Shown: in pieces, positions 14,666-54,599 of the stretch | Position numbering within the stretch: position 1 is the stretch's first letter | Layout of the letters: each line of letters begins with the position of its first letter | Origin: a virus | DNA length: 64,000 nt | Direction: 5' to 3' (one strand) | IMG/VR virus record: IMGVR_UViG_3300042090_002148 | The notes under the pieces: generated by a model | Database searches by the model: none | The model's input: the letters and a program-made list of their open reading frames with translations, nothing else | Told to the model about the DNA's origin: nothing | Made by a program: the position numbers and the translations under genes

Positions 14666-15942
14666 CTGGGGGTACCTCCGACGAGGCCCATCACGCGCTG
14701 CTTGATGCCGCTGGCCGAGGCTCCTGCGGCCTGCCCGAGCGTGGCCCCAGGGTTGGCAGCCATGTGGGCCTGCATCCCGCGGCCGAGGTGACCCGCACCG
14801 GCGCCGAGGGCAGCTCCACCTAGAGCTCCTCCGAAACGGTTATCCGGTCCTCCTGCGAGTGCGCCGCCGGCGGCACCGAGAGCGGCACCCGCGAGCTCGG
14901 GATGCGCCTTCGCAGCTCCCAGCGCCTTGGTGGCCATCCCACCGATGGCCTTCATGTCGATGGCAGCGATCTTCGTTTGGGTGCGCGCGAGGATGCGCCC
15001 CATGCGGTCGGCCATCGCGAGATGCTGCGCGTGCTTGGCTTCCTCGGCGTGCTTCGGCTTGCTCTTGCCTAGTTCGCCGAGCAGACCCGGTGTGCCGCCT
15101 TCCTCGTGAGACGAGGGAGTGAGCAGACCGCCTAGTGGATTCCAGGCGTTACCGCCCGCTTCGTGCTTCTTCGCGGCATACTCGTGATGACGTGCATTGA
15201 TGTCAGGCCGCTGGCCGTTCTCGTCAATGGTGCCGAAGCGCAACTTGTCAAGCAGACTGCTCTTGGCAGCGCCTCGGTGTGGCAGACCACCATAGCCCTG
15301 AGAATGCTCTGCAAGCTCCGCGTCGTGCCGTGCCATCAGGCGATATTTCTCTGCGTCGAACTTGTGCCCCTTCTCGGTGATTGCAAAGCCTGTCTTCGCA
15401 ACCCCGCCACCGAGGCCACCCGAGCTGTCCTGAACGCCCTCCGCGGGGACAGGACCAGGAGCTCCGGCACCCTGCGCGGTGTCTCCCACCGGTTCCCCCG
15501 CCGGTGCAGCGCCCGCTGCGGCAGCTCCACCCTGCTGCTTGGCCAGCTCGAGCTCGAGGAGACGCTTGCGGACGCGGAGCTTGTCCTTCGCGTCCCAGAT
15601 GGTGTCCTCGTTCTGTCGGTTCGCGCGGCTCTCCTGGCGCTTCTGGAGATCCAGCATCTCCGCTTGGAGCTCTTCCTGCTCGAGGGCGACGGCCTGGTCG
15701 AACAGGGGCGTGCCCTTGAAGCGATCGAGGAAGGTCTTCGGCTCGCCGTCCGGGCCGCACTCGCTGGCCGTCTTCGTCAGCGGCTTGCGATCGAGGTGGC
15801 CGTAGAGCTCGGAGATGGGCATCCCCGAGGCGATCTTCTCGACCTCCCAGTCAGGGAGACCATCGAGCAAACCGATGACCTCGAACGTGGCCTGCTGCCG
15901 TCCCATCTTCTCGTACGTGGCTTCGAGGAACTCTTCAAACAC
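14653..15942 (-). CDS. Putative internal head polyprotein with K-x-A-flanked cassettes
   Basis: TKTA|S, AKTG|F, PKHA|E, AKHA|Q, TKIA|A; C-terminal Gly zippers. Confidence 0.75.
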   Translation of the reverse strand: MFEEFLEATYEKMGRQQATFEVIGLLDGLPDWEVEKIASGMPISELYGHLDRKPLTKTASECGPDGEPKTFLDRFKGTPLFDQAVALEQEELQAEMLDLQKRQESRANRQNEDTIWDAKDKLRVRKRLLELELAKQQGGAAAAGAAPAGEPVGDTAQGAGAPGPVPAEGVQDSSGGLGGGVAKTGFAITEKGHKFDAEKYRLMARHDAELAEHSQGYGGLPHRGAAKSSLLDKLRFGTIDENGQRPDINARHHEYAAKKHEAGGNAWNPLGGLLTPSSHEEGGTPGLLGELGKSKPKHAEEAKHAQHLAMADRMGRILARTQTKIAAIDMKAIGGMATKALGAAKAHPELAGAALGAAGGALAGGPDNRFGGALGGAALGAGAGHLGRGMQAHMAANPGATLGQAAGASASGIKQRVMGLVGGTPSPKA

Positions 15943-15952
15943 AGCGGGCCTC

Positions 15953-17896
15953 CTACTTCTTCTTCGCAGCAGCCTGCGCTGCGCGGATGGATCGAACGTG
16001 CTCTCGGACCTTGACGATGTTGTCCTTCATCCTCGGGCCGAGGTACCCCCCAGCTGCGCCACCGACAGCAGCGCTCATGGCGGTGAACTTGCCTGGGTTC
16101 TTCTTCGCATAGTCATCCGTGGCGAGCTCGCTCTTCGCGGCCCCTAGGCGGCGTGACTCGGAGAAGCTCCGGTCCTTCTTGCCCTCGAGCTCCTTCTCGA
16201 CGGCCTTCACGTGGGAGACGTCGCGCTTCGTCTCGTAGTGCCCGGTGGCGGCACCGAGTGCGGCGCCGGCAGCGGCGCCTGGGCCATGCTTCTTCGCGGC
16301 GCCGATCGCCTTGGTCATCTTGGAGACGGCCGCGGCGAGGACCTCCTTCTGTGGGGTCTTCGCGTCGCCGGTCTGCTCCTTCTGGCCCACGTTGGTCGCG
16401 GTCTGCGCGGTGTCCATCATCGGCTTGGACATCGCGATGCCGTCTGCGTTGGGCACGGTGGCGTCTCCCTCGGGGGCAGGGGAACCAGGCGGGGTGCCTG
16501 GAGCGGGGGCCTGACCGGCAGGACCCGAGGTGGGGTTGGGGACGCTTGAGGGTGCAGCCCCGGTGCTCGCTGCGGACATGGCGGCCTGGTCCGGGCTCAT
16601 CGACGGCGGGTCGCTCGAGACCGTGTTGAGGATCTGCCCGCGGAGCTGCTGGTAGGCCATCCGCATGGCAGCAGCTCCCTGCTGCTCCTTCAGCACCTGG
16701 TCGCTCGCCATCATCGCCTTCTGGGTGGAGTCGGCGACCTGGGCCTGGATCTGCGCGAGCTCCTGCTCGTGCAGCGCCTGCGCTTGCTGAAGCTGCTGGG
16801 CCTCCTGCTGCGCAGCCTCGAGCTGCTCCTTCGCCTGGGCAAGCTGCTCCTGGTAGAACTGCACCGCGCTCGCGTCGGTGGCCTGGTTGAGCTCCTGCTG
16901 CGTGGCGAGGTACTGCTGGGTGGCCTGGTCGACTGCCGGCGTGACGGGGACGGGCTTGGCTGGAGGCTGGTCGAGTGCCTGCGCGGCCTGCTGTGGGTCG
17001 ACGGGAGAGGACGGGCCCATCCCCATGCCTGCGTTCTGGACCTCCTCGAAGGCGCGCTTCATCGCAGCCCCGAGCTTCTTCTTGGCCTTGTTGTACTCGT
17101 GTACCGCCATCCCGCCTATGATGGGAGCACCGATCGCCGCCGTACCCAGACCGGTCAGACCCTGTGCATCAGCAAACGGGTGCATGAACTTGGGCAGAGG
17201 ATTCGCAGCAGCGGTCTTCGCGTGGCGGTCCATGACCGCGCCGACCTCACGCCCCGTCTTGCCGGCGATGTGGTGGCCAACAGCTGCGCCGGCGATGGTG
17301 GCGAGGGGGTTGCCCTTCCCGTACCGGTGGGAGGCGTATCCCCCGAGCGCGGCGCCGGTGATGCTGCCCACCAGGCCTCCGCCGTGCTCGCGCTTGTGCG
17401 CCTCGGCCTTCTCCTTCTCGGCGGAGAGGGAGGCTCGCGCGCGCTCCTTGCCGATCTCCTCGGGTGTCTTGTCCGAAGCGGCAGTCTTCTGCAGTCGCTT
17501 GTTGACGTCGTGCAGAACCGTACGATCCACCAAAGCTGCCGCCATCATGGCTGCGCTTCCGATGAGTGCTCCCGGTACCGCCAGTCCCGCGGGTGCCCCT
17601 GCGAGTCCGCCCATGACGGCGCCGACACCCGCTGCACGCGGATACGCCTTATGTGCGGGCATGTCGATGCCCTTCTCCGCCTGCTTGACGGTGTTCTGCC
17701 CCATCGCCGTGCTGGGCAGGGTGATCGGAGCGGGCGCGGGCATCTGCTGCCCGTTGGCCGTCGGAGGGAGGGTCGGCGCGGCCATCCCGCCGGCGGTGGC
17801 CAGCTTGGGACGGTCGTAGCCGAGAAGCTTCACATGGAAGGCGGCTGCGTCCGCGAGGGGCAGTCCGTTGAGCAGGGCGTTCTCAAAGTCACTCAT
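15953..17896 (-). CDS. Putative internal head polyprotein (cassettes plus a Gln-rich coiled coil)
   Basis: PKLA, VKQA, QKTA, AKTA, MKRA motifs; Gln/Ala coiled coil; GAAAGAALGAATG. Confidence 0.75.
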   Translation of the reverse strand: MSDFENALLNGLPLADAAAFHVKLLGYDRPKLATAGGMAAPTLPPTANGQQMPAPAPITLPSTAMGQNTVKQAEKGIDMPAHKAYPRAAGVGAVMGGLAGAPAGLAVPGALIGSAAMMAAALVDRTVLHDVNKRLQKTAASDKTPEEIGKERARASLSAEKEKAEAHKREHGGGLVGSITGAALGGYASHRYGKGNPLATIAGAAVGHHIAGKTGREVGAVMDRHAKTAAANPLPKFMHPFADAQGLTGLGTAAIGAPIIGGMAVHEYNKAKKKLGAAMKRAFEEVQNAGMGMGPSSPVDPQQAAQALDQPPAKPVPVTPAVDQATQQYLATQQELNQATDASAVQFYQEQLAQAKEQLEAAQQEAQQLQQAQALHEQELAQIQAQVADSTQKAMMASDQVLKEQQGAAAMRMAYQQLRGQILNTVSSDPPSMSPDQAAMSAASTGAAPSSVPNPTSGPAGQAPAPGTPPGSPAPEGDATVPNADGIAMSKPMMDTAQTATNVGQKEQTGDAKTPQKEVLAAAVSKMTKAIGAAKKHGPGAAAGAALGAATGHYETKRDVSHVKAVEKELEGKKDRSFSESRRLGAAKSELATDDYAKKNPGKFTAMSAAVGGAAGGYLGPRMKDNIVKVREHVRSIRAAQAAAKKK

Positions 17897-17902
17897 CGCG
17901 CA

Positions 17903-18457: not shown

Positions 18458-18483
18458 GAGGGGTCTTCTTTCAGCGCGTAGCT

Positions 18484-18512: not shown

Positions 18513-18518
18513 ACAGGT

Positions 18519-19556
18519 TCAGTGAGAGGTAGGAGAAGCCAAGGGAACAGGGACCACGTTGTGCGAGTCGCAGTCTGCGCACTGAAGTGAGAAGCCACCT
18601 GCCGTGTTGGGCTGCAGAGGCGTGTTCGCCGAACCGCACAACGCACACACGAAGGCAGCGCCCTTACCGTGGCGTCCCTGACGCAGTTGCAGATTCTCCA
18701 GTGCGTTGTTCTCCTTGTTACCGTCGATGTGATGGACGGTCTCGAAGGCTGTAAGGGAACGACCGAGATGCCGCGCCATCACAAGACGGTGCTCCATCAC
18801 ATAACGCCCGCCCTCTGATGCAGAAACACCCATGTCGTAGTGTGGATCCTCTGGGTAGACGCGCACAATCAAGTAGCCACGTGACTTTCCCTTGCCGCCC
18901 TTCCACCAGTGATGCGCTTCGCCAGCGGGAGCGCCTACCTGCCGGAGCTCTACGCCAGCCCTAACGAGATGCTTGGTAGCCGTCGTGTGCCCCACGTTGA
19001 ACGCCAAAGCAACCTCGGACACAGAAGAACCTGCCTTGTACATCGCCACCATCTTCTCGGGCATATCTCCCATAACCTTGGGGGGTGAACCACGATGACC
19101 GCGGCGAAGTCCGAGCCGCTTCAACCCGATGCGCACGGCGTTCACTGGGATCTGCAGCGAGTTGGAGATCTGTACTGAAGTACTCCCTGCGCGGAAGCAG
19201 TCGGCGATGGTCAGCAACTGCGTTTCGGTCAAGACAACGGCCGCCGCAGCCACCCCGGGTGCGTACGCCTTCTCACGCAGAAGGGTCTGACGAACAGTGG
19301 GCTTGGGCACACCTGACGCCACAGCTATCTCCCCCAGAGTCATGCCCCGTGCGTGCAGCGCTAGCACCTGTGCTGCGACGTGCGGGTTAGGCCGCGGCCC
19401 ACGTGCCAGCTGCACACCACGCCGCCGCAACGCTGTGCGTACCGTGGCCGGGTTCACCCGCAGTACCTCTGCGATCTCTTCGGCATCCTTGCCCTCGGCG
19501 TACAGCGCAAGTGCGTGCTCCTCTTCCTTGGGACCAACCTTCCTTGCGTACGGCAT
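18519..19556 (-). CDS. HNH endonuclease with tandem N-terminal HTH repeats and a NUMOD-like motif
   Basis: About four HTH-like units, GEAHHWWKGG, YVMEHRLVMA...VHHIDGNKENNALENL; GAGGAG SD. Confidence 0.88.
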   Translation of the reverse strand: MPYARKVGPKEEEHALALYAEGKDAEEIAEVLRVNPATVRTALRRRGVQLARGPRPNPHVAAQVLALHARGMTLGEIAVASGVPKPTVRQTLLREKAYAPGVAAAAVVLTETQLLTIADCFRAGSTSVQISNSLQIPVNAVRIGLKRLGLRRGHRGSPPKVMGDMPEKMVAMYKAGSSVSEVALAFNVGHTTATKHLVRAGVELRQVGAPAGEAHHWWKGGKGKSRGYLIVRVYPEDPHYDMGVSASEGGRYVMEHRLVMARHLGRSLTAFETVHHIDGNKENNALENLQLRQGRHGKGAAFVCALCGSANTPLQPNTAGGFSLQCADCDSHNVVPVPLASPTSH

Positions 19557-19604: not shown

Positions 19605-19626
19605 CCACACTAACCAGCCAAGGAAG

Positions 19627-20888: not shown

Positions 20889-22013
20889 TCAGTACGTGTT
20901 GACCTGGGGGAAGAAGAGCCCCGCGTCGACCTGGTTGTTCGGAGCGCCGAGAGCGTCCTCGCTGACCGGAATGAAGTTGGACAGGAGCGTGTCCGCGTTC
21001 GTGACGGGGTTCGCATCGGCGGAGTAGAGCTCCAGCTTGCGGACGGCCGCGATGTTCAGGAGTCCCATGCCCACGTCCTCCCAGGCCTGGAACGTGATGA
21101 CGTTCGCGATCTTGTCGATGTAGAACTTCGTGTTGTTCAGGATGTAGAACTTCCCGAAGAACTCCGGCTTCGTGAACACGTAGATGTTCCCGGGCCGCAG
21201 GATGTCCGTCTTGATCGTGCGGATGTACGCACGCCCGAGGAGCGTGTTGTACTTGTAGCCGTCGACCGCGGTCTCGGACTGGATGCGGTCGCCGAAGTCC
21301 TCGACCGTCCACTGGAGGACGTCGTCCCAGTCGACCTCCGTGGTCAGGAGGCGCTCCGAGCGGAGGCGATTCCCGTCCAGGAGCTTGAACAGGTTGACGA
21401 GGTCGGGGCGCTGAACCGGGCGCACCGTCGCGTCGTTGGTGGTCGCGTTGCGTGCGAGCTCGCCCTTGCGGATCGAGAACTCGACGACGTCGCCGGCCTT
21501 GATGTTGCTGGCGTTGAGCGCCGTCGCGACGCCGCCGTTGGCCTGCATCTGGAGGGCCTGGCACGCGGCCTCAGTGTTGATCGTGAACTCGTGGTCCTCG
21601 ATCTCCTGGATGTCCTTCACCGAGTTCTCCTCGATGATCTTGGTGATGGGCATCTCGTACGCGAGGAGCTCCTGCTCGGTCTTCTGGAAGACCTCGGAGC
21701 TGATCGTGTAGAACCCGATCTCCGCCTTGGGGCCGCGGATGAAGCGCGCCGTGGGGGTGCCACGGAAGTCCATCGTCATGGCCTTGGACTGGGGCTCGAT
21801 GTCCACGATCTTCACCAGCGTGTCGTGGTTGACGGAACGCTGGCAGTCCGTGCGGGTCACCTGCTCCGGCGGAAGGATCTTCCGTGTGAACGAGACCTCG
21901 CGAAGACGGTCGCGGATGTACGAGCCACCGTACTCTGCGAGCTTCTCCTTGGTGTCGCTCGAGCCGAGCTTGGTGCTGAACAGGTCGTTGAGAACGCGTG
22001 CCGGAACACTCAT
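20889..22013 (-). CDS. Major capsid protein (HK97 fold)
   Basis: YIRDRLREVSFTRKIL, LLAYEMPITKII, KDIQEIEDHEF; 374 aa; follows the protease, scaffold and decoration genes. Confidence 0.85.
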   Translation of the reverse strand: MSVPARVLNDLFSTKLGSSDTKEKLAEYGGSYIRDRLREVSFTRKILPPEQVTRTDCQRSVNHDTLVKIVDIEPQSKAMTMDFRGTPTARFIRGPKAEIGFYTISSEVFQKTEQELLAYEMPITKIIEENSVKDIQEIEDHEFTINTEAACQALQMQANGGVATALNASNIKAGDVVEFSIRKGELARNATTNDATVRPVQRPDLVNLFKLLDGNRLRSERLLTTEVDWDDVLQWTVEDFGDRIQSETAVDGYKYNTLLGRAYIRTIKTDILRPGNIYVFTKPEFFGKFYILNNTKFYIDKIANVITFQAWEDVGMGLLNIAAVRKLELYSADANPVTNADTLLSNFIPVSEDALGAPNNQVDAGLFFPQVNTY

Positions 22014-22614: not shown

Positions 22615-22989
22615 TCAGCCGACAGTACCGAGGATGTACCTCTCGAAGTCCGTGGTGCCTTGCGCGATGCCCTCCGATGCGTCGGAGGTCAACGACGCGA
22701 CCTTCATCCCCATGTCGGGACCAACGAGGTCCACGCCCTGCTCGATGGCATCGAGCTTCTCGGGGGTCGCCTCCGCCATCTTCTCGAGGCGGTCAGCGAG
22801 GACCTCGACGGAGGTGTCGAGGTCGATGCCCTTGTTGTGCATGTTGTGCGCGAGCTTCTCGACGCGGTCACGCGTCTCACGCGCGGCGAGCTTGCTCTGC
22901 AGGTCGTGGATGACCTCCTGCTGCGAGCGGAGGGTGGTCGCGGCGTCGGACATGACTTCCGCGAACTGGCTGGCTGCTGTCTTGTCCAT
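22615..22989 (-). CDS. Scaffold-like coiled-coil protein
   Basis: MDKTA|ASQF; coiled coil; C-terminal DFERYILG; GGGAG SD. Confidence 0.6.
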   Translation of the reverse strand: MDKTAASQFAEVMSDAATTLRSQQEVIHDLQSKLAARETRDRVEKLAHNMHNKGIDLDTSVEVLADRLEKMAEATPEKLDAIEQGVDLVGPDMGMKVASLTSDASEGIAQGTTDFERYILGTVG

Positions 22990-22997: not shown

Positions 22998-24371
22998 TCA
23001 CGCCCCCTGCTTGCTGGGGTCTGCGTTGATGCCTTCGACGAGGCGGCCGAGAAGAACGCGAGCTGCCGCAGTCTTCACCGGGCCACCGGGCTCGGCGCTC
23101 GCGAACTTGGTGCCGGCCTTGCCCGTGTTCTCGAGGACGTCACGGAGCGTGCTGTCGTGCGCCATGCTGAGCGCCGGCTCGTTGAAGTACTTCCCGAGCT
23201 CCGCGCGGCGCGGACCGTGCGACTGCCCCTTCGTGTAGTTCTGGGCAGCCTCGTTGCTGCCCACGAGAGAGGTGGGGCCCTGGGGCGCGCCGCCGACAGG
23301 CTCACCGCCGGGCTGACCCGCGGCGCTGGTGTCCGGGGGAACTGCCGCACCGGCGGAGATCTGCGCCGGGTTGATGGCGTCCTCCGCGACCTTGGTGATG
23401 TGCTTCCGCAGGCCGTCGACGAGGCCCGCCATCTTTGCAGCGGCCTCCTTGTCCTTGTTCTCGGGCTCGGACTCGTGAGCCTTCTCCGCCTTGGCGAGAC
23501 CCTTCTCGGCCTCGCGCATCCCCTCGGTCTCCTTCTTCTCCGCCTCCGGGCTCGCGAGCTTGGCGCGGATGAGGCTGAGGGCCGAGCCCCGCTTCTCCGA
23601 GACGATGTTCTTCGGCATCTCCTTGTGGAGCTGCGGCGCATCGTTCTGGGTGTTCGCCATCTGCGTGGCGCCGTGCTCGGTGGGCATTGCCTTCTGCTCA
23701 CCGGGATTCTTGGGGACGATGTTGACGCCCTGACCGTGGTGGTCCTTGAGCGTCGCGCCGCCCATGGCCTCGGAGACGCCCGGGGGGTTGGTCACCTTCG
23801 ACTCGGTGAGGTTGTAGGGGCCGCCCATGCCGGAGGCCTCCTTGCGGAGAAGGTCCGCCCCGTAGTCGAGGGCAGCGGCGAGCTTGGTGACGGCCTCGTC
23901 GTCGATGAGCGCGAACGCCGAGGCCATCTTGCCCCCGCACGCGCACTTCTCCTTGCCGCACTTCTCGCACTTCTTCTTGTCCTCACCGGCGGTCTTCACC
24001 GCCTGGAGCTGTGCCTCCGTAGTGACGCGGACGCGCTCGGCAGTCTTGGCCACCGCCGTCTTCACCATCGAACTCAGACTCGCGCGACCTGCAAGGCTTC
24101 CCATGGACTCTTCTCCGTGTGCCAACTTCGGCAGCATCTCAGCACCCCGCGGGGGCGCACTCTTCTGTTCGCTTGCTCCCGCATCCGGAACGGTGGGGAG
24201 ACCGGTGTTCACGCGCGAGTAGTTGGTCCGAGGCCCCATGCCTGCGGGCCCGCGCTTTCCGGGTGCCAGTGTGGGTTCGATGCTGGGTGTGGGGAGAGGG
24301 GCGGACGCGCTCATGCCCGTCGATGAAGGCATGGGGTTCTCCCCCGTCTTCACCAGCTTGAGCATGTTCAC
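22998..24371 (-). CDS. Scaffold/core protein dense in K-x-A sites; second in-frame start at 24104
   Basis: More than 10 K-x-A/G motifs (VKTA, AKTA, GKMA, TKLA, RKEA, AKLA, AKMA, TKVA, TKFA); start GTG 24371 or ATG 24365. Confidence 0.7.
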   Translation of the reverse strand: MNMLKLVKTGENPMPSSTGMSASAPLPTPSIEPTLAPGKRGPAGMGPRTNYSRVNTGLPTVPDAGASEQKSAPPRGAEMLPKLAHGEESMGSLAGRASLSSMVKTAVAKTAERVRVTTEAQLQAVKTAGEDKKKCEKCGKEKCACGGKMASAFALIDDEAVTKLAAALDYGADLLRKEASGMGGPYNLTESKVTNPPGVSEAMGGATLKDHHGQGVNIVPKNPGEQKAMPTEHGATQMANTQNDAPQLHKEMPKNIVSEKRGSALSLIRAKLASPEAEKKETEGMREAEKGLAKAEKAHESEPENKDKEAAAKMAGLVDGLRKHITKVAEDAINPAQISAGAAVPPDTSAAGQPGGEPVGGAPQGPTSLVGSNEAAQNYTKGQSHGPRRAELGKYFNEPALSMAHDSTLRDVLENTGKAGTKFASAEPGGPVKTAAARVLLGRLVEGINADPSKQGA

Positions 24372-24393: not shown

Positions 24394-25350
24394 TCAGGTC
24401 GCTGCCGGGTCGTTCCAGGTGACGGGGTACCCCGCAGCCTCGAGGATCTCGAGGGCACGGATGTCGACGCCGACCTGGTAGTTGGGGGCCGAGGCGACCT
24501 TCTCGCTCTCGCCGAGGAGGCCGAGCTCGAGGACGGCGGCGACCTTGCGGCCTGCCTCCTCGACGTCGAAGGTGCCGTCCGCGGCAACCATCTCGACTGC
24601 GCGCTCCGCGCCGAGCTCGTCGAGAGCCGACGCGTGCTTCTTGTGGTGGTGCGCAGCAGCTGCTCCCGCGCCCGCCGCGGCAGCGCCGCCAGCGACAGCC
24701 GCTCCGCCGACCGCCTTGGCGTGGCTGGGCTTCATGTTGTGGGTGCCGACGCCGGTGGCCTTCTCGGTGATCTTCTTGCCGAGGTGCTCGAGGCCCTTGC
24801 CCGCCTTGTCGGCGACGCGACCCGCAGCCTCACCCACGGCATGGGCGCCGTGGCGAACCGCCTCACCGGCGTCGTGCGCCGCCATGTGCGGCCCCTTGCC
24901 CGTGAGCTTCTTGAAGGCTTCGGCGGCGCCGGCCTCCTTGATGTAGCCGCGCTCTTGCTCGAAGGAGTGCGCCATGACGCGCCCGAGGTAGTCGGCCTTG
25001 GCGATGTCCGCGGCCATCGCGGTCTTCTCCGCGAACTCCGCAGCAGCCGCCGCGTGCTTCTTCTCCTCCTCTTCCTTCTTCTTCTCCTCTTCCTTCTTCT
25101 CGTCCTTGGGCGGCTCGTGAGCCGGCTCCTCCGAGGCGAGCTTGGCGACCTCGGCCTGGAACTCCCCGTAGAGGGTCTGGACGTCCGCGTCGGACATCGA
25201 GTTCAGGTCGATCTGCTGGTCGCTGGCGACCTTCAGGAAGAGCTCGACGGAGGCGACCTTCTCGGCCTCTTCGTCGGTGACCGCGCTGGCTTGCTTGGTG
25301 CCGTAGAACTGCGCGAGAGATTCGTTCATCTGGGGTGCGGTAGCGGGCAT
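24394..25350 (-). CDS. Scaffold/internal head protein with a Gly/Ala cassette
   Basis: TKQA, EKVA, LKVA, AKLA, EKTA, IKEA, KKHA; poly-E/K tract. Confidence 0.75.
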   Translation of the reverse strand: MPATAPQMNESLAQFYGTKQASAVTDEEAEKVASVELFLKVASDQQIDLNSMSDADVQTLYGEFQAEVAKLASEEPAHEPPKDEKKEEEKKKEEEEKKHAAAAAEFAEKTAMAADIAKADYLGRVMAHSFEQERGYIKEAGAAEAFKKLTGKGPHMAAHDAGEAVRHGAHAVGEAAGRVADKAGKGLEHLGKKITEKATGVGTHNMKPSHAKAVGGAAVAGGAAAAGAGAAAAHHHKKHASALDELGAERAVEMVAADGTFDVEEAGRKVAAVLELGLLGESEKVASAPNYQVGVDIRALEILEAAGYPVTWNDPAAT

Positions 25351-27044
25351 CAGACTTCTCCAGTGGGCACGGGCCGAGTGTTCGAGGGTGTTCCCTCTAC
25401 TGCCGTTGCGACGGTGTCAGACGGTACACCAACTTCATCCCAGTAGGCCAGTTTGAGGTAGCTCGCTGAGAGGGGCGTGAACAGTGAATCAACACTGACT
25501 GACGCCAGCTTACGCGTCTGCGCCGTCTTCGCCAACTGCGAAGAAGAAACAAACTCTTGGGCGTGAGCGACGAGGTCCATGATTCCGGTTCGATACCCGT
25601 TGTAGGCAGCTCCTATCTTACGCAGCGAGACTGAAGGAAGGGAAGAAGTCGAGGCGCGCTTCTCTTTCGGCTCGTCATGCGTAAGTAGAATCCGCTGTTC
25701 TACTTGTGGTCCAAAGGCAGAACGTTCTGCGAGAAGAGGCAGCAGTAGATGCGCCAGTGTCTCGGAGAAGAACTGCGGACCCATCGGTACGTCCAGGGTC
25801 TCTTCGGTCTTCGGGAAGACCGTTCCTTTGCGTTCCAACTCATTCGCGAGAGGACGTTGTCCCATCTGAATGAGGATGATGCGCTGGAACTCCCGTGGCC
25901 GAAGAACCATCCCCAGACTCGTGGGTGTGGACAGCGCTTCTTCGAGAGGAGAGTCCCCCAGGATGTCGAGGATGTCCTTCGGGATGTCGCGCTCGTTTGC
26001 AGTGAGAACAGGCACCGCCTTGGCTGCGAACTGACTCGGCAGAACATCCTTGGTGATCTCGGCGCCCTTGTCCTTGGCGCCTTTGAAGAACACGGCTGCG
26101 AGTTTGTCGCCCTCGGGGATGGACTCATCGTAGCCGAGCTTCTCGGCGAGCTCAGCACCGCCCATGAAGAAGTACGACTTCCCCTCGCCGGCGATCTTCA
26201 TCATCACCTTGGCCGTCTTGTCGGCGCCGATGAAGACGAAGCTGATGTCGAAGAAGCGCGGGTAGTCGTTGAAGACGAAGACCTTGCGCCCGTCCGGAAG
26301 AATCCGATTCAGGTTCTTCCTGGTGAACTCGTCGTAGTCGTTGCGTGTGATGGACACGCCGGGGATGCCGTAACCTGTCCGCTTCTGCAGCTCCTTGTGG
26401 AACTGGAGGACCGCATCCCCGGGAGAGCGATGCCGCTTCTTGTCGAAGGTGGCCTGCGCCTTCCGGTACATGTCCCAGTCGAGGGTGATGGACGACGTGT
26501 CGAACGGAACACGGGTGCCCATCGAGACGTCAACGAACTGTCCGGCGTGGAGCTTGTCCCACACCCCCGTGCCGCCGAACTGCTGGCACTTGTCCTGGTC
26601 AACGCGTACCACGAGCTCGACGCGCTTCATGCGCGGATGCCAGGCCGCGAGCTCCACGTCCCCGAACGCGCGCTTCGCATCCTTGTTCCGATGGTGAGCG
26701 AACGGGTGCGCGTTGTAGAACGTCGGGAACCCGTAGGCCCAGTCCTTCGCCTTGATCCTGTCGAGCAGTGGGTTGCCCGTCCAGTCATCCGGCTTGTGGA
26801 TGAGGGACTCCTCGGTGAAGGCGTCGCCATTGACGTTGGCTCCCCAGAACTCGCTTGCCCCCATCGCGTTGACGAGGACGTACTGCGAGTTCTTGCTGGG
26901 CTTCAGCGACGCGATGTACTGCGACACCTCCGGCAGGAGCGTGGGTGCCGCTGTCTTCTCGAACACCGCGTCGGAAGGGCCGAAGAGCGGGAACGTGTGG
27001 ATTCCCTTCTCGTCCTCCCCGCGAAACAACGCCACCTTGAGCAT
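25350..27044 (-). CDS. Prohead (maturation) protease, HK97/herpes-type Ser protease
   Basis: NVNGDAF, HHRN (His), VDVSMG (Ser), PRFFDISFV..GADKTA; upstream of scaffold and MCP. Confidence 0.82.
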   Translation of the reverse strand: MLKVALFRGEDEKGIHTFPLFGPSDAVFEKTAAPTLLPEVSQYIASLKPSKNSQYVLVNAMGASEFWGANVNGDAFTEESLIHKPDDWTGNPLLDRIKAKDWAYGFPTFYNAHPFAHHRNKDAKRAFGDVELAAWHPRMKRVELVVRVDQDKCQQFGGTGVWDKLHAGQFVDVSMGTRVPFDTSSITLDWDMYRKAQATFDKKRHRSPGDAVLQFHKELQKRTGYGIPGVSITRNDYDEFTRKNLNRILPDGRKVFVFNDYPRFFDISFVFIGADKTAKVMMKIAGEGKSYFFMGGAELAEKLGYDESIPEGDKLAAVFFKGAKDKGAEITKDVLPSQFAAKAVPVLTANERDIPKDILDILGDSPLEEALSTPTSLGMVLRPREFQRIILIQMGQRPLANELERKGTVFPKTEETLDVPMGPQFFSETLAHLLLPLLAERSAFGPQVEQRILLTHDEPKEKRASTSSLPSVSLRKIGAAYNGYRTGIMDLVAHAQEFVSSSQLAKTAQTRKLASVSVDSLFTPLSASYLKLAYWDEVGVPSDTVATAVEGTPSNTRPVPTGEV

Positions 27045-27053: not shown

Positions 27054-27599
27054 CTACTCCTCGCGGCTCTGCCCCTGCGGACGAGGCACGCCGGGATCGT
27101 GCTTCATGCCCTTCTGCGCAGCTCCCATCATGACGTGCCCGAGCGACGGCTCGTTGCCGCCCGAGTTGCCGAGCATCTTGCGGCGTGAGTCGAGAGCCCC
27201 TCCGATGAGGCCGTTCACTCCCTGCGGGCTGCCGACCATCTGACGGACGTACGCACCTGCGACCGTGGGGTCTGCCGAGAACTCGGGCGCGAAGGTGCGC
27301 AGCGTGGAGAACATTCGGTTCACCGTGCGCGGGTCGTTCTGGTGCATCTCGTGGAGGTCCTCGTTCTCCGCGAGCATGTTCCTGAAGTCGCGTGCCTTGG
27401 TGGCTGCGTCGTAGATGGCGTGTCCCGCCATGCCGACCGCTGCGACGGCGCCGGCACCGAGAGCTGCTGCCCCAGCACCGACGATGCTTCCGGCGAGGTT
27501 CTTCGGAGCCATCACCGCCTTGGCCGCCTGGCCGAAGGCCTGTCCGTACCCAGCGGCCTTCTTCTCGAGGTACTCCGTCAGCGGGTTCTCACTGGCCAT
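27054..27599 (-). CDS. K-x-A/Gly-zipper putative internal head protein
   Basis: MASENPLTEYLEKKA|AGYG followed by a hydrophobic Gly/Ala helix; GGAG SD. Confidence 0.7.
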   Translation of the reverse strand: MASENPLTEYLEKKAAGYGQAFGQAAKAVMAPKNLAGSIVGAGAAALGAGAVAAVGMAGHAIYDAATKARDFRNMLAENEDLHEMHQNDPRTVNRMFSTLRTFAPEFSADPTVAGAYVRQMVGSPQGVNGLIGGALDSRRKMLGNSGGNEPSLGHVMMGAAQKGMKHDPGVPRPQGQSREE

Positions 27600-28857: not shown

Positions 28858-29583
28858 ATGCCGAAACCCGAACCAAGTGAGTACGTGACCAGGGACGAGG
28901 CAGCCGAGCTCCTGGGAGTAGGAGCCGACACCATCACGCGGTGGACGAAGACGGGCCGACTTGTGTCGGCTTCGCTCGAAAAGAGCGGGCCCAAGGGAGG
29001 ACGGCCTCGCGTTCTGTACAAGCGGGTGCACATCATGGAGATGGCGACACTTCTCGCCAACGAGCCCGACATGGCGCAGACGCACGCGCTCGGTCTGAGG
29101 AACGCCGCGTCTGTCTCCACCCTCGAGCGGCGGGTCGACGAGATCTACGACGCCATGGGCCTGGGCGTCGCCTCCCTGCCGACGGACGAGAGCTCTGTCC
29201 GCGCGCTGCTCCAAGAGACCAACTACTCCCCGGACCGACAGCAGCTACGGGCAATCACGTGGGTACGTCTGTGGGGCTCCCGCTTCTTCGGCATGAACAC
29301 CTTCTACTTCGAGCTCGCAGAACGAGTGCGACCGGATGCCTGGCAGTGCTACGCCGGCTTTGGGGACCTCATCGAGTACCGCGCTCACGACCTACTCGAA
29401 GAGGTCATCCAGCGCGATCCGGAGCTTGTACGCGCGTACAAGTACCTCGCCGCGGCGAAGCGGCACCTCCACTACCAGAGCTTCATGTACTGCGTGCAGC
29501 ACCACGGCCTGAAGGCGACTGTCGCTCAGCTGGGTCGCCCACCGAACGCCATCGCAGAAGTCTCTGCGCTGCTGATGAACTAG
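28858..29583 (+). CDS. MerR/excisionase-type HTH DNA-binding protein
   Basis: YVTRDEAAELLGVGADTITRWTKTGRL...RVLYKR; AGGAG SD. Confidence 0.8.
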   Translation: MPKPEPSEYVTRDEAAELLGVGADTITRWTKTGRLVSASLEKSGPKGGRPRVLYKRVHIMEMATLLANEPDMAQTHALGLRNAASVSTLERRVDEIYDAMGLGVASLPTDESSVRALLQETNYSPDRQQLRAITWVRLWGSRFFGMNTFYFELAERVRPDAWQCYAGFGDLIEYRAHDLLEEVIQRDPELVRAYKYLAAAKRHLHYQSFMYCVQHHGLKATVAQLGRPPNAIAEVSALLMN

Positions 29584-49134: not shown

Positions 49135-51180
49135 TTAGGTACCGCCTGCTCTGCGTGGGGGACGCTGCTGTGGCATCGGGCGCGTGTCGACGCCGGCCAC
49201 CTGTGACCCGGTGTTCCCCGAGCTCTCTCCACCTTCGCCCCCCATCTGGGCCAGGTACTGACGCACCAGGTCCGCGAGCTCGGGGCTCTGGAAGCCGAGG
49301 TTGGTGATGGCCTGCGCCTGCTGCTGCTTCGGCAGGGTCGCGATGGTGCGCGCCTGCATCAGCGCCAAGGAGGGCAGGTCGATGTTCTGCTTGGCCTGGC
49401 CGCCGCCAGCGCCCTGCATCTTCTGCCCGCCGGAGAGCTGGCTGCCGATCTGCTGGAGGAAGTCCGGAGGAGACGCTCCTCCGTTCGCAGGCTGCTGTTG
49501 CTGCGGAGCCTGCTCTCCGAGCTGCGGGGCCTGTCCCTGCTCGGGCGGTGGAGGTGCCATGCCCGCAGCGCCCTCGAGGCCACCAGGCTCTCCGGGTGCC
49601 TGTGGGGCCCCCATCGCCGTCTGAGTCTCCTGCTGCGCGCGAGCCTGGTACTTCACCATCACGAGCTGGGACTCGCCCTGGATGGTCGCCATCGCAAGCT
49701 GCTGCTTCTTCGTGGCCTCGAGACGTGTGTCGGTCTCGCGGATCATGATCTGGTTCTCGTCCTCCTGGGACATGTCGCTGTCTGCGAGGAGGGTCGTGTC
49801 GCTGATCTTGCCGGCCGCGTTGAGCTGGAAGTTGAACGCCTTGCGCTGCAGGTCGTCCGCCATCTTGAACGGCTTGAAGCGGATGTTCGCGAGCGGCCAC
49901 CCGAGGAACGAGGAGACCTGCCGCATGATGAAGCGGGCGAGGTCGCGCTGACGCTGGAGGTAGCCGATGAACATGTTCTCGAGCATGCGCATCGACACGT
50001 TCGTGCCGGCGTAACTCATGCCGCCCTTGATGAACTCGAGGGGGACACCCATGCCGTTGAGGATCTGCTCCGACCAGGTCACGATCTCCTGCGTGAGAAG
50101 AAGCGCACGACCGTCACCGCCGATGGTCTGGTTGCCGATGGGCAGAGGAAGGATGGGGATGTAGTTGTTGTCCGTCCTCCAGCGCGCAATCTCCTGGGCA
50201 ATCTGGTCGCGCCAGTCGATGAGGTTGATGGTGGTGTACGGGTCCGAGCTCCCCGAACCGGCCTGCGGGAAGATGACGCGCAGCGGGACGATGTGCTCGA
50301 CGAGGATGGCCTCCTGCGCCTTCTTCATGATCTGCAGGTAGAAGGTGTCCTTCAGGACCGGCAGAAGAAGGGGAACACCCACGCCGCGGTCCTGCCCTGC
50401 CAGGGTCGGACGACGCATGTGGAAGAAGTTGTCCTTCGAGAAGATGACCCCCTTCTGCTCGCGCATCGCCTGGATGAAGACCTGCGGGATGCCGTCGACG
50501 ACGTCCTTGCGGCCGATGACGATGTCGTTCCGGATGATGGCGGGGATGTCGTAGAAGTACGTGTAGTCCCCGGTCATGTCGTTGTAGCGAACCTCGACAT
50601 CCTCCGGGTTCCAGCGGATCGTCTTGATGCCGCTCGCGTTCTTGTAATAGACGTCCTTCGGCGTGGCATCACCGACGCGACCACAGCGCGGGCAGGTGAG
50701 CCGGAAGTTGAAGTTCGTGAAGATCCAGTTCGCCCGGATCTTCGACGCCTCGTCGCGGAAGTTGCACGCGTTGCAGAAGAGGAACTTCTTGAACGGGAAC
50801 CCGAGCGAGACGTAGCCGTTGCCGTACGCATGGAAGTCGAGACCCGACTCCACCTGGAACGAACGGTAGCGGAGATGATCCTGGAAGTACTCCGTCCAGC
50901 GCTTCTTCACCTCCGGGTCTTCGTGGTCGATGATGATGTCGGTGACGGGGTACTCGCTCAGCTTGAACACCGTCGCATTGATGAGCGGGTTCGTGAGGAA
51001 GTAGTAGCGGCACCACTTGAAGAGCTGCTTGACCGTGACCGGCAAGTACGTGTGCGCGATGTCGAAGAACGGCGAGGGGTAGTTGACCCCTTGGATGTTG
51101 GAGCCGTTGATGCGCCCGCGTGTTGTGGCGAAGCGGAGCCCGCTTGCCGGGCCTGTCGCCATTCCTCCCAGAAAGCTCAT
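49135..51180 (-). CDS. Portal protein
   Basis: LINATVFKLSEYP, YGNGYV, RWNP, FHMRRP...GVGVPLLLP, GVPLEFI; CxxC insertions; Pro/Gln-rich tail. Confidence 0.85.
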   Translation of the reverse strand: MSFLGGMATGPASGLRFATTRGRINGSNIQGVNYPSPFFDIAHTYLPVTVKQLFKWCRYYFLTNPLINATVFKLSEYPVTDIIIDHEDPEVKKRWTEYFQDHLRYRSFQVESGLDFHAYGNGYVSLGFPFKKFLFCNACNFRDEASKIRANWIFTNFNFRLTCPRCGRVGDATPKDVYYKNASGIKTIRWNPEDVEVRYNDMTGDYTYFYDIPAIIRNDIVIGRKDVVDGIPQVFIQAMREQKGVIFSKDNFFHMRRPTLAGQDRGVGVPLLLPVLKDTFYLQIMKKAQEAILVEHIVPLRVIFPQAGSGSSDPYTTINLIDWRDQIAQEIARWRTDNNYIPILPLPIGNQTIGGDGRALLLTQEIVTWSEQILNGMGVPLEFIKGGMSYAGTNVSMRMLENMFIGYLQRQRDLARFIMRQVSSFLGWPLANIRFKPFKMADDLQRKAFNFQLNAAGKISDTTLLADSDMSQEDENQIMIRETDTRLEATKKQQLAMATIQGESQLVMVKYQARAQQETQTAMGAPQAPGEPGGLEGAAGMAPPPPEQGQAPQLGEQAPQQQQPANGGASPPDFLQQIGSQLSGGQKMQGAGGGQAKQNIDLPSLALMQARTIATLPKQQQAQAITNLGFQSPELADLVRQYLAQMGGEGGESSGNTGSQVAGVDTRPMPQQRPPRRAGGT

Positions 51181-52112
51181 ACGGGTGACTCCGGCGCCTG
51201 TCCGGCAGCAGCGGGACTCATGACGCGTTCAGTGGCGGTCTGCTGTGCCTCGGTTGGCTCCATCGTAGGAGTCGGGGCGTTGTGGAGTCGACGCCCCCGA
51301 AGACGATCTACTCCACGACCTGCCCAGGCACCGACCTGAGAAGACCCCGCACCGAGCGCGGCCTGCCCACCCATCGGCAGCATGCCACCGGCGATGCCGC
51401 CCACCGCACCTCCAACCGCACGACCCACGGACTCACCTCGGCCCTGTCCTTCTTCGGTCGGAGCAAGAGCACCTGCCGCGAGGGGGAGCCCGACGGCTGC
51501 TGCAGTCAGAAGTGGTTGGTTACGCAACTGCTCTTCCGCGCTCGTGCGCAGCGTATTGCCGACGCCGTTGTTCTTCATCGACTTGAGGTAGCCGGGGATG
51601 CTGGTGAGTCCCATGTTCTGCGCCTTCTCGGAAGCGTTTAGCGCTTTCTCCAGCCGTGGGACACTCCTGCTCCCCTCGGCCTTTGCTGTCGCGAGCGCTT
51701 GACGAGCATCATGTGCTCCGCCGCGCACTCCCTCGATCTCTGCAGGGGAAAGCATTCCGGTGAAGCCATGAACCTGTCGTTGACCGAACCGTGACGCCGC
51801 GCCCATAGCGCCCGAAGCTTGCGTAAGGTGGCTGAGATCTTTCTTGACCAGGCCGCCAGCTGCTCCGCCAGCGAGACCACCAACCATCCCGCCCATCGTC
51901 GCGCCTTGAACAGCACCCCCGAGAGCTCCTGAGACACCACTCTGTCCGTTCTCCTCTGCGTGCTGGTAGCCGTGGATGCCGCCAAGGACTGCTCCACCGC
52001 CGGCGCCCAGCAGAGCACCACGCCCGCCGAGCGCACCGATGTTCTTCAACGCGAAACCGGCCTCCTTGCGGAGCTCGTCGCGGAACGCGAGCAGCATGGC
52101 CTCATCGAGCAT
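51177..52112 (-). CDS. Gly-zipper putative internal head protein
   Basis: AFRDELRKEA|GF followed by multiple GxxxG zippers; lower GC3 in the interior. Confidence 0.72.
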   Translation of the reverse strand: MLDEAMLLAFRDELRKEAGFALKNIGALGGRGALLGAGGGAVLGGIHGYQHAEENGQSGVSGALGGAVQGATMGGMVGGLAGGAAGGLVKKDLSHLTQASGAMGAASRFGQRQVHGFTGMLSPAEIEGVRGGAHDARQALATAKAEGSRSVPRLEKALNASEKAQNMGLTSIPGYLKSMKNNGVGNTLRTSAEEQLRNQPLLTAAAVGLPLAAGALAPTEEGQGRGESVGRAVGGAVGGIAGGMLPMGGQAALGAGSSQVGAWAGRGVDRLRGRRLHNAPTPTMEPTEAQQTATERVMSPAAAGQAPESPV

Positions 52113-52896
52113 GGAACAACCCCAGCTGGTTCATGAGTCGTTCGCGGTTCTCGTTGAGCTGCTGCTGCACCACAAGGAGACGATCCAGCTGCACAGCCAC
52201 GGGTGTTGTAGCAGGAAGCGGCTTGCCTGCGCGCAGTACCTCGTCACAACGAGCCTGCACAGCACCGAGGTCCAGTCCCTCGGGGGCGTCAGGTGTCACG
52301 AAGTCAGCGGGTGGCAGCGTGCGGTAGATCCCATCGTGCTCGTAGATGGTCTTGACGTACGCCTTGAGCTCCTCCGACCAAGCCGGCACGCCCTCGGTGC
52401 GAACGTGTCCGGCCGTGGCGCAGGCGATGAGCACCTGACCTACCGTCGGCACCTGCATCACCACGAAGTCCGGGAACTCGCCGTTGAACGGCATGCAGCA
52501 TGCGAGGAAGACTCCCCAGCGTTCCCAGAAGGCGTCAGAGAGAAGGAGCGCACGCACCGCCTGGATCTTCGACAGGTTCAACGCGCTCAACCCGACGCCG
52601 AGGAACTCCTCCGCGATGCGGGGAGCAAACGTCTCGGCTTCCCACTCGAGCCAGTCGTCGCCGAAGGCGCCTCGAAGAAGAGCCTGGAGCACTACGGGGT
52701 GTGCCTCGGGGTGGCCCCAGATGTTCTGCTTCGTCACCGCGGCGAGAGGCAACGGGATGGTGGTCGTGGTCACCGTAGGGACGGGTGGCGTCGACTCGAG
52801 GTGCTCAGTGACGGCGTCCTCCAGAGGAAGATGAGGAGCGCCGACGTTCTTGAGCGTCTCGAGGAAGGTCTCCTCGGAGATGGGCAGCGGGGCCAT
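52102..52896 (-). CDS. Hypothetical protein
   Basis: High GC3; GAGGG SD. Confidence 0.72.
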   Translation of the reverse strand: MAPLPISEETFLETLKNVGAPHLPLEDAVTEHLESTPPVPTVTTTTIPLPLAAVTKQNIWGHPEAHPVVLQALLRGAFGDDWLEWEAETFAPRIAEEFLGVGLSALNLSKIQAVRALLLSDAFWERWGVFLACCMPFNGEFPDFVVMQVPTVGQVLIACATAGHVRTEGVPAWSEELKAYVKTIYEHDGIYRTLPPADFVTPDAPEGLDLGAVQARCDEVLRAGKPLPATTPVAVQLDRLLVVQQQLNENRERLMNQLGLFHAR

Positions 52897-52907
52897 CGCG
52901 TCCCTCT

Positions 52908-54599
52908 CTAGTACGCCGGCTCTGCGCCCGGTGCGGTGCCCTGCGCCATGTGGATGACCATCTTCTTCTGGTCGCGGGGCAGGCTCTCGTAGACGCCGAT
53001 GGGGTCCTTGCGGAACTCCTCCTGGAAGTCTTCACCGAAGGTGTCACGCACCGTGTGCGTCCCGACGTGCGCGAGACGCTTCAGGTCCGCGTAGGTGATC
53101 ATGTCGTTGCCGATGATGTCGGACCACGACGACTTGCTCGCGATCTTCTCGTTGCCGAAGATGGAGAAGTAGGGGTCAGGGATCGTCTTGTCGTAGGAGC
53201 GGTTCAGCCCGGTGTCCTTGTCGAACTCCGAGAGCAGTGCGCACGCCTCGACGGGATGAAGGGCCAGCGACGCCAGCTTCGAGCCACCCTGCGTGAGGAT
53301 GACGTCCTCCACGGCATCGAGGACACGAAGCACGTCAGGGTACGCCTGGAGCTCTGCCCGTCGCGCGTCGAAGGCGATCTTGATCTCGGTCTCCGGAGCG
53401 AGGCCCTCTGCGCCGTACTTGTGCGCGATGTCCGGGATGTCGATGGCCATCGCCGACGCCTGCTTCACGAGGTTCACGGCGTACTCACGGCGCTCTTCGG
53501 GAGCGAAGAACTTGTAGTACTCCCCGAAGTAGGAGCCTGCTGCCTTCACCTGCGCGTAGCTGTCGAGCGGGTAACGGGACAAGCTTGGCAGCGCGTACTT
53601 GCTGGCCTTCTTCTCCGTCACGTAGGTCGGAGGCTTCGCGTTGGTGACGTCCACTGTCGGCTGCAGGTGCTTCGCCTGCGGCAACGACTTCGGTCCCTCG
53701 CCAGCGATGGCGCTGTTCTCCTGCAGCATCTCCTCGTGGTCGCTCTTCGAGGCCGAGACCAGATGACCGACGCGCGCGGTCTTGTTGATGGTTGTCTTCG
53801 ACGGGGTCGGCGAGAGCTTCCCAGGCTCCTCCATGGGAGCAGTCGTTGTGCCGTTGACCTCTGCCCCTTTGAACGTGCTCATCAACTGTCCGCCTGCCTG
53901 GCCGGCCGCAGCCATGTTGTTCTTGATGGCACCTCCTGCACCTACAGCCGTGCGCGCCAAACCCACGGCCTTACCGATGCCGCCCGGCAACATCTCAGCT
54001 GCGCTACCCAAGAGCTCACCACCAAGACCCGCGAACTTTGCGCCAGCTCCCATGTGCTGCTGCACCGCTTTCTGCGCCGAGGCGACGTTCACAGGCCCAC
54101 CGGTGGCACCTGCGTAACCCGCCACCCGATCACCCTGCATGATGCGCTTATACCTTCCTCCATACTGCGCCTTCATGCGGGCCTCTACGGCCATCTGCTC
54201 AGGACTGCCCAGTACGTTGGTAGCATCCGATGAACCCATGCCCGCCTTCTTCACAAGTTCCTCTGGGACCTCGAGGTCGTACCAGCCAGAGGCGACGATG
54301 AGGTTCTCCGCGGCTGTCTTCTGCGCCTCGACGGGAAGCTTGTGCGCGTTCTTGAGGAAGTACGCGACGGAGAGCTCGGTGTTGCCTGGGTCGACGCAGG
54401 CGTACTTCCTGAGCTTCTCTCCGTTGTTCACCATGACGAGTGCGAAGACGTCGTCCGGCAGCCGGTTGCGCGTGCCTTTCAGGTCTGACGCCACCTTCAC
54501 GCCTTCCGGCAGCGCGTCGAGCGTGGGGTAGAGAGAACGCAGAGTCTCTCCGTTGAAGTCGTCGTAGACATCGAGAATGAGGCCGCTGATCGAGTCCAT
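52908..54599 (-). CDS. Putative internal head protein with a K-x-A-flanked cassette
   Basis: VKVA, QKTA, VKKA, AKFA, FKGA, NKTA, EKKA, VKQA, SKLA, EKIA motifs. Confidence 0.78.
   Translation of the reverse strand: MDSISGLILDVYDDFNGETLRSLYPTLDALPEGVKVASDLKGTRNRLPDDVFALVMVNNGEKLRKYACVDPGNTELSVAYFLKNAHKLPVEAQKTAAENLIVASGWYDLEVPEELVKKAGMGSSDATNVLGSPEQMAVEARMKAQYGGRYKRIMQGDRVAGYAGATGGPVNVASAQKAVQQHMGAGAKFAGLGGELLGSAAEMLPGGIGKAVGLARTAVGAGGAIKNNMAAAGQAGGQLMSTFKGAEVNGTTTAPMEEPGKLSPTPSKTTINKTARVGHLVSASKSDHEEMLQENSAIAGEGPKSLPQAKHLQPTVDVTNAKPPTYVTEKKASKYALPSLSRYPLDSYAQVKAAGSYFGEYYKFFAPEERREYAVNLVKQASAMAIDIPDIAHKYGAEGLAPETEIKIAFDARRAELQAYPDVLRVLDAVEDVILTQGGSKLASLALHPVEACALLSEFDKDTGLNRSYDKTIPDPYFSIFGNEKIASKSSWSDIIGNDMITYADLKRLAHVGTHTVRDTFGEDFQEEFRKDPIGVYESLPRDQKKMVIHMAQGTAPGAEPAY

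Follow-up and report, generated by a model that had tools for sequence, protein, structure and literature searches.

Exchangeable modules bounded by K-x-A tripeptides in head genes of an uncultured myovirus encoding a candidate assemblin-fold protease

We analysed a 64,000-nucleotide stretch of the IMG/VR virus record IMGVR_UViG_3300042090_002148 (hereafter, the window), in which five genes, here called gA to gE, carry in-frame segments (cassettes) that end at the tripeptide K-x-A or a close variant and differ between related phages. The source is an uncultured myovirus of ~187 kb, and the gA protein of the window is also present on a contig of 187,301 bp. The virion module lies on the minus strand and includes the genes for the large terminase subunit, the major capsid protein and the tail sheath (Table 1). 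The head-module proteins are strings of modules split by K-x-A, in which Gly, rarely Ser, may replace Ala; the N-terminus of the major capsid protein, for instance, has K-L-G with its Gly at residue 17 and K-L-A with its Ala at residue 26. The GC content of the window is 62-68%, a megablast search with 10 kb of the window against 50,697 phage records returned no match, and the identity of the large terminase to those of Bacillus and other phages is 26-28% at most.

Table 1. Location and properties of the cassettes, neighbouring modules and virion genes (GC3, GC content at third codon positions; GC3 z scores are matched for amino-acid content, and motif z scores come from per-protein shuffles)
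Feature	Position	Strand	Details
gA cassette (EKGHKF domain)	15046-15387	-	aa 186-299 of gene 14653-15942; after K-T-G, ends K-H-A; GC3 z -4.7
gB cassette 1	17480-17677	-	aa 74-139 of gene 15953-17896; between K-Q-A and K-T-A; GC3 z -3.2
Resident gB module	17210-17479	-	aa 140-229; glycine-zipper-like; GC3 0.89; between both cassettes
gB cassette 2	17069-17209	-	aa 230-276; between K-T-A and K-L-G; GC3 z -2.6
gC variable segment	24631-24930	-	aa 141-240 of gene 24394-25350; after K-E-A, ends K-H-A
gD variable cassette	34630-34902	-	aa 188-278 of gene 33106-35463; GC3 z -2.5
gE insert	54030-54242	-	aa 120-190 of gene 52908-54599; between K-K-A and K-F-A; GC3 z -3.3
Resident Gly-rich gE segment	53862-54029	-	aa 191-246; ends K-x-A then Glu; GC3 z -3.2
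Candidate prohead protease	25350-27044	-	assemblin-fold domain ~aa 33-287 (26184-26948); model places fold at ~48-295
Disordered linker of protease	26046-26183	-	aa 288-333; six K-x-[AG]; then helical C-terminal domain
g455, scaffold-like	22998-24365	-	21 K-x-[AG] vs 10.7 expected, z 3.9
g128, small head-module protein	22615-22989	-	5 K-x-A vs 1.2 expected, z 3.9
g406, head-module protein	27589-28809	-	13 conserved K-x-[AG] vs 4.9 expected, z 4.1
Large terminase subunit	29580-31463	-	phrog_675 E=6e-45; PF05876 E=2e-9
Major capsid protein	20889-22013	-	phrog_2522 major head protein E=2e-7
Tail sheath	8540-11998	-	1152 aa

An earlier note, made from the letters of this DNA, had listed six such segments, each said to run from one K-x-[AG] to the next. 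All six exist and five translate in frame as quoted; the sixth, given as about 17210-17070, was off frame by 1-2 nt and corresponds to gB cassette 2. The proposed bounds hold for the cassettes of gA and gD and for both cassettes of gB, and fail in two cases: the interval in gC, an acidic, scaffold-like protein, contains an internal K-A-G, and the gE interval 53862-54242 is composed of two units, an insert and a resident Gly-rich segment. For gD, the long open reading frame (33106-35739, minus strand, with a TTG start at 35739) is probably over-extended, and the true start is placed near 35463 because orthologues are conserved only from M-(x)-Q-P-L-F-L.

The relatives used for comparison are uncultured contigs of ~160-200 kb drawn from several archives. 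The set comprised two IMG/VR relatives, three further contigs and orthologues of gD, and 60 homologues of gB and more than 170 of gE were collected. One contig, L004 (European Nucleotide Archive contig_9154), was left out for gA, gC and g455 because these genes are frameshifted there; its gA, gC and g455 orthologues are frameshifted or split next to intact adjoining genes, through either assembly error or real decay.

Across the relatives, flanks are 70-95% identical, and segments are missing, or swapped for unrelated sequence, exactly at K-x-A. The clearest series comes from gB. The flanks are nearly identical among 14 close homologues, of which seven have nothing in slot 1 (after N-T-[VI]-K-[QA]-A) and read ..K-Q-A-A-S-D-K.. 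across the site, and the other seven hold one of three unrelated insert types, all ending in K-[TH]-A. Because each filling brings this terminal motif, an empty slot contains one K-x-A and a filled slot two. The resident gB module is nearly invariant in the 14 homologues, with a ratio of nonsynonymous to synonymous substitution rates (dN/dS) of 0.02. Slot 2 (after D-R-H-A-K-T-A) holds at least 10 unrelated fillings, besides empty forms, among 50 homologues. Furthermore, the gB homologue P0003 carries an additional cassette in an N-terminal slot, with the motif again duplicated, and the same empty/filled pattern is seen between P0058 and P0054 and in g455 of L005.

The remaining genes follow the same plan, so that the prediction of conserved scaffolds with non-homologous fillings between K-x-A sites was borne out in the comparisons of gA to gE. 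In gA, the L002 and L005 orthologues diverge from the first residue past G-V-A-K-[TM]-G. The gC segment is of the same type in L003 (dN/dS 0.03), whereas L001, L002 and L005 have unrelated sequence in its place, the divergence starting directly past I-K-E-A. The 91-aa gD cassette is unrelated in the window, L006 and L007, the flanks of which show ~70-80% overall identity, and ends in K-x-[GA] followed by Ser. Among 16 aligned gE homologues, only the window copy contains the insert, which is missing from the 15 others, including P0061, otherwise 96% identical; by contrast, the resident segment is in place in all 16, and K244-x-A is retained in 89% of 121 family members. The filled-site pattern recurs within the gE family (the window, P0139, P0077, P0131 and P0127, plus a 17-aa mini-cassette). 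For the 42 distinct rare inserts of the gB and gE families taken together, the left junction falls exactly at the motif end in 13, compared with 0.96 expected and a maximum of six in 2000 randomisation runs. The automated statistic for the right junction is weak (2-9 of 42) because the aligner gives the duplicated K-x-A to the conserved flank, and right junctions were read by eye instead.

The same cassette can also occupy different genes, as the earlier note had anticipated. The gA cassette, which we refer to as EKGHKF, belongs to the most mobile family: it recurs from end to end as an insert in P0077, a homologue of gE (E=1e-33), in the g455 orthologue of L005 and the g455 homologue P0343, and in the gD homologue P0341, where it occupies the very slot of the window gD cassette. 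A search among longer proteins located EKGHKF at several positions in gA homologues, and four unplaced host proteins contain it, one as a tandem pair. In the homologues of gA, gD, gE and g455 as well as in the unplaced hosts, the cassette always starts with an invariant Phe directly after K-x-[A/G/S]. Likewise, gB cassette 2 has a homologous counterpart in the gE family, the insert of P0139, with 49% identity (E=8e-13) starting at the residue that follows K-E-A. These comparisons show, at the level of sequence, that the modules between K-x-A tripeptides come and go, give way to unrelated ones and move from gene to gene; the proposed exchange between conserved K-x-A sites is thereby recovered, with scaffolds kept and fillings unrelated or absent. 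Small stand-alone relatives (P0337, P0339 and P0334) consist of a leader ending in D-E-L-E-K-I-S, an EKGHKF cassette (two in tandem in P0334), K-x-A and a Y-P-I-P-D..H module, a layout that resembles separate cargo genes such as those of the T4 internal proteins.

Codon usage was compared with amino-acid content matched. Five of the six cassettes have a GC3 of 0.65-0.72, compared with 0.80-0.91 in the flanks, and the lowering described previously persists in all five after matching (z -2.5 to -4.7); the share of A/T-ending codons that follows from these values is 28-35%, not the 35-45% that had been counted by hand. The host-like usage attributed to the gC cassette was found as described (z +1.3, GC3 not lowered), as was the position of the high-GC3 resident gB module between two low-GC3 cassettes (0.89 versus 0.65 and 0.69). 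The switch in GC3 coincides well with the motif bounds in gB and gE, as had been claimed in general, and more loosely in gA, as the dip there begins ~50 codons ahead of the motif. Among the relatives, lowered GC3 is frequent, not universal, and the type-b cassettes of L001 and L003 do not show it.

The tripeptide itself is overrepresented in the head-module proteins. We counted 91 K-x-A in ten of these proteins, a set picked partly after the motif had been seen, where 44.7 were expected (p=1e-11) and eight other spacings gave 35-55. This approximately twofold excess occurs at that spacing only, the other 33 proteins have no such peak, and K-x-G is not enriched in the head-module proteins. Shuffling protein by protein, which is independent of the ten-protein grouping, yields z scores of 3.2-4.1 for g406, the candidate protease, g455, g128 and gE, and the sheath, tail proteins and terminase are almost motif-free. 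The residue next after the motif is Ser at 25 of 91 head sites versus 4 of 50 sites elsewhere (p=0.008), and in three families the Lys of the motif is conserved more strongly than the remaining Lys (p=0.007, 0.046 and 0.005). In gE, 12 of 17 motifs are conserved in at least 74% of the family; in g128, the first K-x-A ends at residue 5 and the motifs are conserved in six orthologues; and g406, which is without a cassette, is collinear with its counterparts in L002 and L003.

These numbers bear on a reading by chance, under which K-x-[AG] would simply be frequent in an Ala/Gly-rich proteome and the GC3 dips would reflect the choice of Gly and Ala codons. The expected density of 1-3 tripeptides per 100 aa, the lack of a K-x-[AG] excess in whole gA and gB in the per-protein shuffles, and the location of the strongest GC3 dips of the relatives in Gly/Ala-rich cassettes all fit this reading, as does the dip of the resident Gly-rich gE segment. 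However, chance would not place junctions exactly at the motif, duplicate the motif at filled sites, start cross-gene homologies at the first residue past it, or confine the enrichment to one spacing; moreover, amino-acid-matched GC3 is lowered also in the gA and gD cassettes, which are not Gly-rich. We regard chance as a very improbable explanation.

At the DNA level, 15 junctions have in common only AAG-NNN-GCN, and the middle codon varies, as does the wobble position of the Ala codon, which indicates that the signal is selected as a peptide and not as a recombination site. Accordingly, site-specific DNA recombination and joints of the PeSL type were rejected, as no DNA word is common to the junctions. 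Inteins, for which we required Cys or Ser as the first residue and His-Asn followed by Cys, Ser or Thr at the end, were rejected as an identity for the cassettes, whose first residue is Phe, Glu, Ala, Gly or Ile and whose C-terminal end is K-x-A. Introns were rejected because the segments are in frame, contain no stops and have a dN/dS of 0.04, and diversity-generating retroelements because the replacements are non-homologous and not point-mutated. A motif excess in a 246-aa protein (1789-2529, minus strand) was likewise rejected as a part of the cassette system, being due to a Lys/Ala low-complexity tail; this Lys/Ala/Pro tail, with its A-K-K-x-A repeats, is like those of histone H1 or HU.

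The prohead protease that the earlier note had invoked has a candidate in the window, encoded between gC and g406 (Table 1). In structural comparisons of its AlphaFold2 (AF2) model (mean predicted local distance difference test score, pLDDT, 77), the best 28 VIA rows were all assemblin-fold proteases, namely herpesvirus assemblins and T4 gp21, with Z 9.4 over 115 aligned residues (root-mean-square deviation, rmsd, 3.0) for the varicella-zoster virus (VZV) protease and Z 8.9 over 131 aligned residues (rmsd 2.8) for T4 gp21. The putative catalytic residues H118 and S174 are invariant in 30 homologues, and a nearly invariant K30-x-A32 marks the end of the disordered N-terminus. Its assignment to the assemblin type, to which T4 gp21, HK97 gp4 and herpesvirus assemblin belong, is a fold-based one, because no Pfam or PHROG protease model was matched at E<=0.01. 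K-x-A is the probable recognition and cleavage site of this candidate head protease.

The protease family is very large (2193 matches) and many of its members are interrupted by inteins; as lengths of 900-1700 aa and two to four matched stretches per protein are common, the family appears to be heavily invaded by these elements. In the L001 orthologue (L001:17-2692), an intein-like stretch of ~330 aa, which starts with Cys and ends with His-Asn followed by Ser, lies between W-G and N-V-N-G-D of a conserved motif.

Alternatively, K-x-A might not be cleaved at all, in which case the proteins would stay intact, with the cassettes as inserted domains or loops and the motif acting as a linker, as a docking or modification signal, or persisting as a trace of microhomology. 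Many motifs are conserved within apparently folded regions, Lys-rich tails precede many junctions, AAG..GC could serve as weak microhomology in illegitimate recombination, and proteolysis at K-x-A is itself inferred. Against this stand the free middle codon, which leaves just five non-contiguous bases in common, and an excess limited to one spacing and to head-module proteins. Furthermore, motifs are concentrated in two disordered parts of the protease itself, its linker and its N-terminus, K-x-A occurs within the first 40 residues of 10 of 15 head-module proteins versus 7 of 31 others (p=0.008, at the level of sequence), and the preferred order, a small residue and then Ser or Ala, is like that of assemblin sites. 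Insertion without cleavage thus appears improbable to us.

The explanation we favour, with a confidence a little better than even, is that the head proteins are processed into modules at K-x-A and that the cleavage sites serve as landing pads for cassettes. The protease would recognise K-x-A and cut after the small residue, so that each module would be set free within the prohead. An insert supplying its own C-terminal K-x-A would leave the mature products of the host protein unchanged, which would make cleavage sites safe landing pads; selection would then retain only inserts placed at such sites, a filter acting by selection and not a site-specific mechanism of DNA recombination. The modules are heterogeneous (hydrophobic glycine-zipper peptides, a helical domain rich in His and, among the relatives, a ferritin-like domain) and are most likely functional cargo or assembly factors.

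Several observations weigh against processing at K-x-A with cassettes landing at the sites. Cleavage is deduced from the sequence and the fold of the candidate protease, which matched no Pfam or PHROG protease model, and, besides the partly post hoc choice of the ten proteins and the unremarkable motif density of gA and gB, the left edge of the gD cassette is without Lys in L006 and L007. Some motifs lie within confidently folded parts, such as K121 and K124 of the protease domain, and g406 and gE, with 13 and 17 motifs, respectively, would be shredded if all motifs were cut. Moreover, propeptide fragments in other phages are generally expected to leave the head (PMC10052503); the cassette products may either be expelled in this way or stay in the capsid and be injected.

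As to their nature, the cassettes are more diverse than had been thought. The earlier note described most of them as a cationic amphipathic helix plus a GxxxG/AxxxG zipper, and all six indeed have a cationic net charge; the description fits gB cassettes 1 and 2 and, as a borderline case, gC, whereas three hydrophilic segments, the cassettes of gA and gD and the insert of gE, do not match it. Membrane-like hydrophobic stretches are likewise confined to the two gB cassettes, the first of which is a hydrophobic Gly/Ala-zipper peptide with a 36-aa uncharged stretch, with gC again borderline. A mainly membrane-active set is therefore not what we find: only 2-3 of the six have a hydrophobic zipper, and the most mobile one is soluble and His-rich. 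The suggested likeness to class II bacteriocins or pore-forming peptides received no backing from Pfam, which matched none of the cassettes. The glycine zipper family PF05433 (Glycine zipper 2TM) scored 16.9 bits, under the cut-off of 24.2, in the C-terminal part of gA, and the precomputed PF05433 matches of some gB homologues fall in resident modules, not in cassettes. More generally, Pfam and PHROGs yielded nothing useful for gA to gE or the cassettes, the protein Atlas contained no usable match for the gA cassette or gD, and neither a search of Protein Data Bank (PDB) profiles nor PHROGs, queried with the gD alignment, identified gD as a portal or any other protein.

The EKGHKF cassette is ~110 aa long and is predicted to form a helical hairpin with a conserved loop. 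Its model had no convincing structural match (best Z 5.7, to generic helical hairpins; none in BFVD with E<1.9). In distant gB homologues (P0050, P0051, P0054-P0056, P0058 and P0059), the N-terminal slot contains a ferritin-like domain (PF00210; E=4e-13 in P0054) between K-T-A and K-I-A, directly past the N-terminal leader; this module is possibly capsid-loaded cargo that protects iron or DNA, reminiscent of encapsulin cargo. The cassettes are under strong purifying selection (dN/dS 0.03-0.04; 0.04 for the gA cassette), and a synonymous divergence two to three times that of the flanks (dS 1.43 versus 0.43-0.57 for the gA cassette) points to a separate history.

These properties are relevant to a further possibility, namely that the sites are cut and the cassettes are disposable propeptide or scaffold filler, tolerated because they are excised, then degraded and expelled at maturation, with no role in the virion or the next host. 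Near-identical phages do differ in the presence of cassettes with no other visible change, and the lower GC3 suggests weaker codon adaptation. Disposable filler, however, would hardly be held under purifying selection of the strength just given, nor would EKGHKF be expected to keep 18 residues, three of them His, invariant in five or more host contexts, or the ferritin-like domain to stay recognisable in relatives (E=2e-17 in P0050). A role during assembly, and not after injection, would suit both readings. We consider it rather unlikely, if a serious alternative, that the cassettes are mere filler.

More broadly, prohead-protease sites might be safe harbours for mobile in-frame cassettes that carry their own cleavage motif and hop between head genes and phages without damage to the host protein; the phage would thereby gain a rapidly changing set of injected capsid cargo (membrane-inserting glycine-zipper peptides, a His-rich domain and a ferritin/Dps-like domain), a protein-level counterpart of integrons that is possibly general across lineages with different protease motifs; we put this wider proposal forward tentatively and lean against it at present. 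Our literature searches turned up neither a prohead protease with a K-x-A motif nor cassettes placed between protease sites. If K-x-A is the protease site, it would be a prohead-protease specificity for which these searches gave no precedent, would provide a simple rule for adding capsid cargo, which is inserted where the protease cuts and brings a further copy of the site, and would explain hypervariable islands within otherwise conserved head genes. Injected proteins of uncultured phages could then be found as motif-bounded modules that differ between close relatives, and the same design could be used to load foreign proteins into capsids. The EKGHKF, ferritin-like and glycine-zipper families are candidates for early-acting or DNA-protecting functions missed by annotation pipelines.

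Compared with known systems, we rate this one as a variant of protease-processed capsid cargo of the T4 type. The T4 internal proteins (IPI, IPII, IPIII and Alt), which carry a capsid-targeting sequence, are processed by gp21, a prohead protease with the assemblin fold, as is the candidate here; the substrates in T4, and the presumed ones here, begin with a short leader that closes with the protease motif. That motif is [LI]-x-E in T4 and would be K-x-A here. As here, the cargo set of T4-related phages is highly diverse and the targeting and cleavage signal conserved (PMC3012670). Each T4 cargo, however, has a separate gene and loses an N-terminal leader alone, whereas the modules described here lie inside several head genes, have the motif on both sides and are mobile between genes; nor did PHROGs or Pfam link gA to gE or the cassettes to the T4 internal proteins. 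In the phiKZ-like phage SPN3US, the protease gp245 cuts many head proteins, the portal and itself at a three-residue motif (A-x-E), and, as here, there are several motifs per propeptide and Ser is preferred after the cut (PMC10052503). Cleavage in this group removes N-terminal propeptides, exchangeable cassettes, whether internal or shared between genes, are not described, and P1 is Glu, not Ala.

Herpesvirus assemblins (the pUL26 protease-scaffold fusion) are similar in fold (Z 8.4-9.4) and in layout, with a protease domain, a linker with cleavage sites and a helical C-terminal domain. They cut after Ala, usually before Ser, with the consensus [VLI]-x-A followed by S. Here, in contrast, P3 is Lys and not hydrophobic, the motifs extend across ten head-module proteins and bound modules, and the identity is 9-17%. 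The in-vivo C-terminus of the pseudorabies virus (PrV) assemblin is Ala225 (PMC4498786). Finally, polyvalent proteins combine unrelated modules in one polypeptide, are predicted to travel with the DNA, and have been proposed to be released by peptidases, assemblin-like ones included (Iyer et al. 2017, PMC5512222). Several unrelated modules per polypeptide are found here too, but polyvalent proteins are large chains of recognisable conflict enzymes with an embedded peptidase, whereas here the protease has a separate gene and the modules are small, mostly of no known family, and inserted in core head-module genes at a defined tripeptide.

The neighbourhood of the cassette genes includes further variable or functionally suggestive genes. 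A gene for a free-standing HNH endonuclease with a helix-turn-helix (HTH) N-terminus (18519-19556, minus strand) lies among the head genes in a region with a local GC content of 0.60, and the gene at this position differs among the relatives, with none of that size in L003, one of 327 aa in L004 and one of 223 aa in L005. The gE operon (49135-55121, minus strand) also encodes a homologue of endonuclease VII (54618-55121, E=2e-29) and a 681-aa protein (49135-51180) with a weak portal match (E=0.004), which hints that gE belongs to a second cluster of head and packaging genes.

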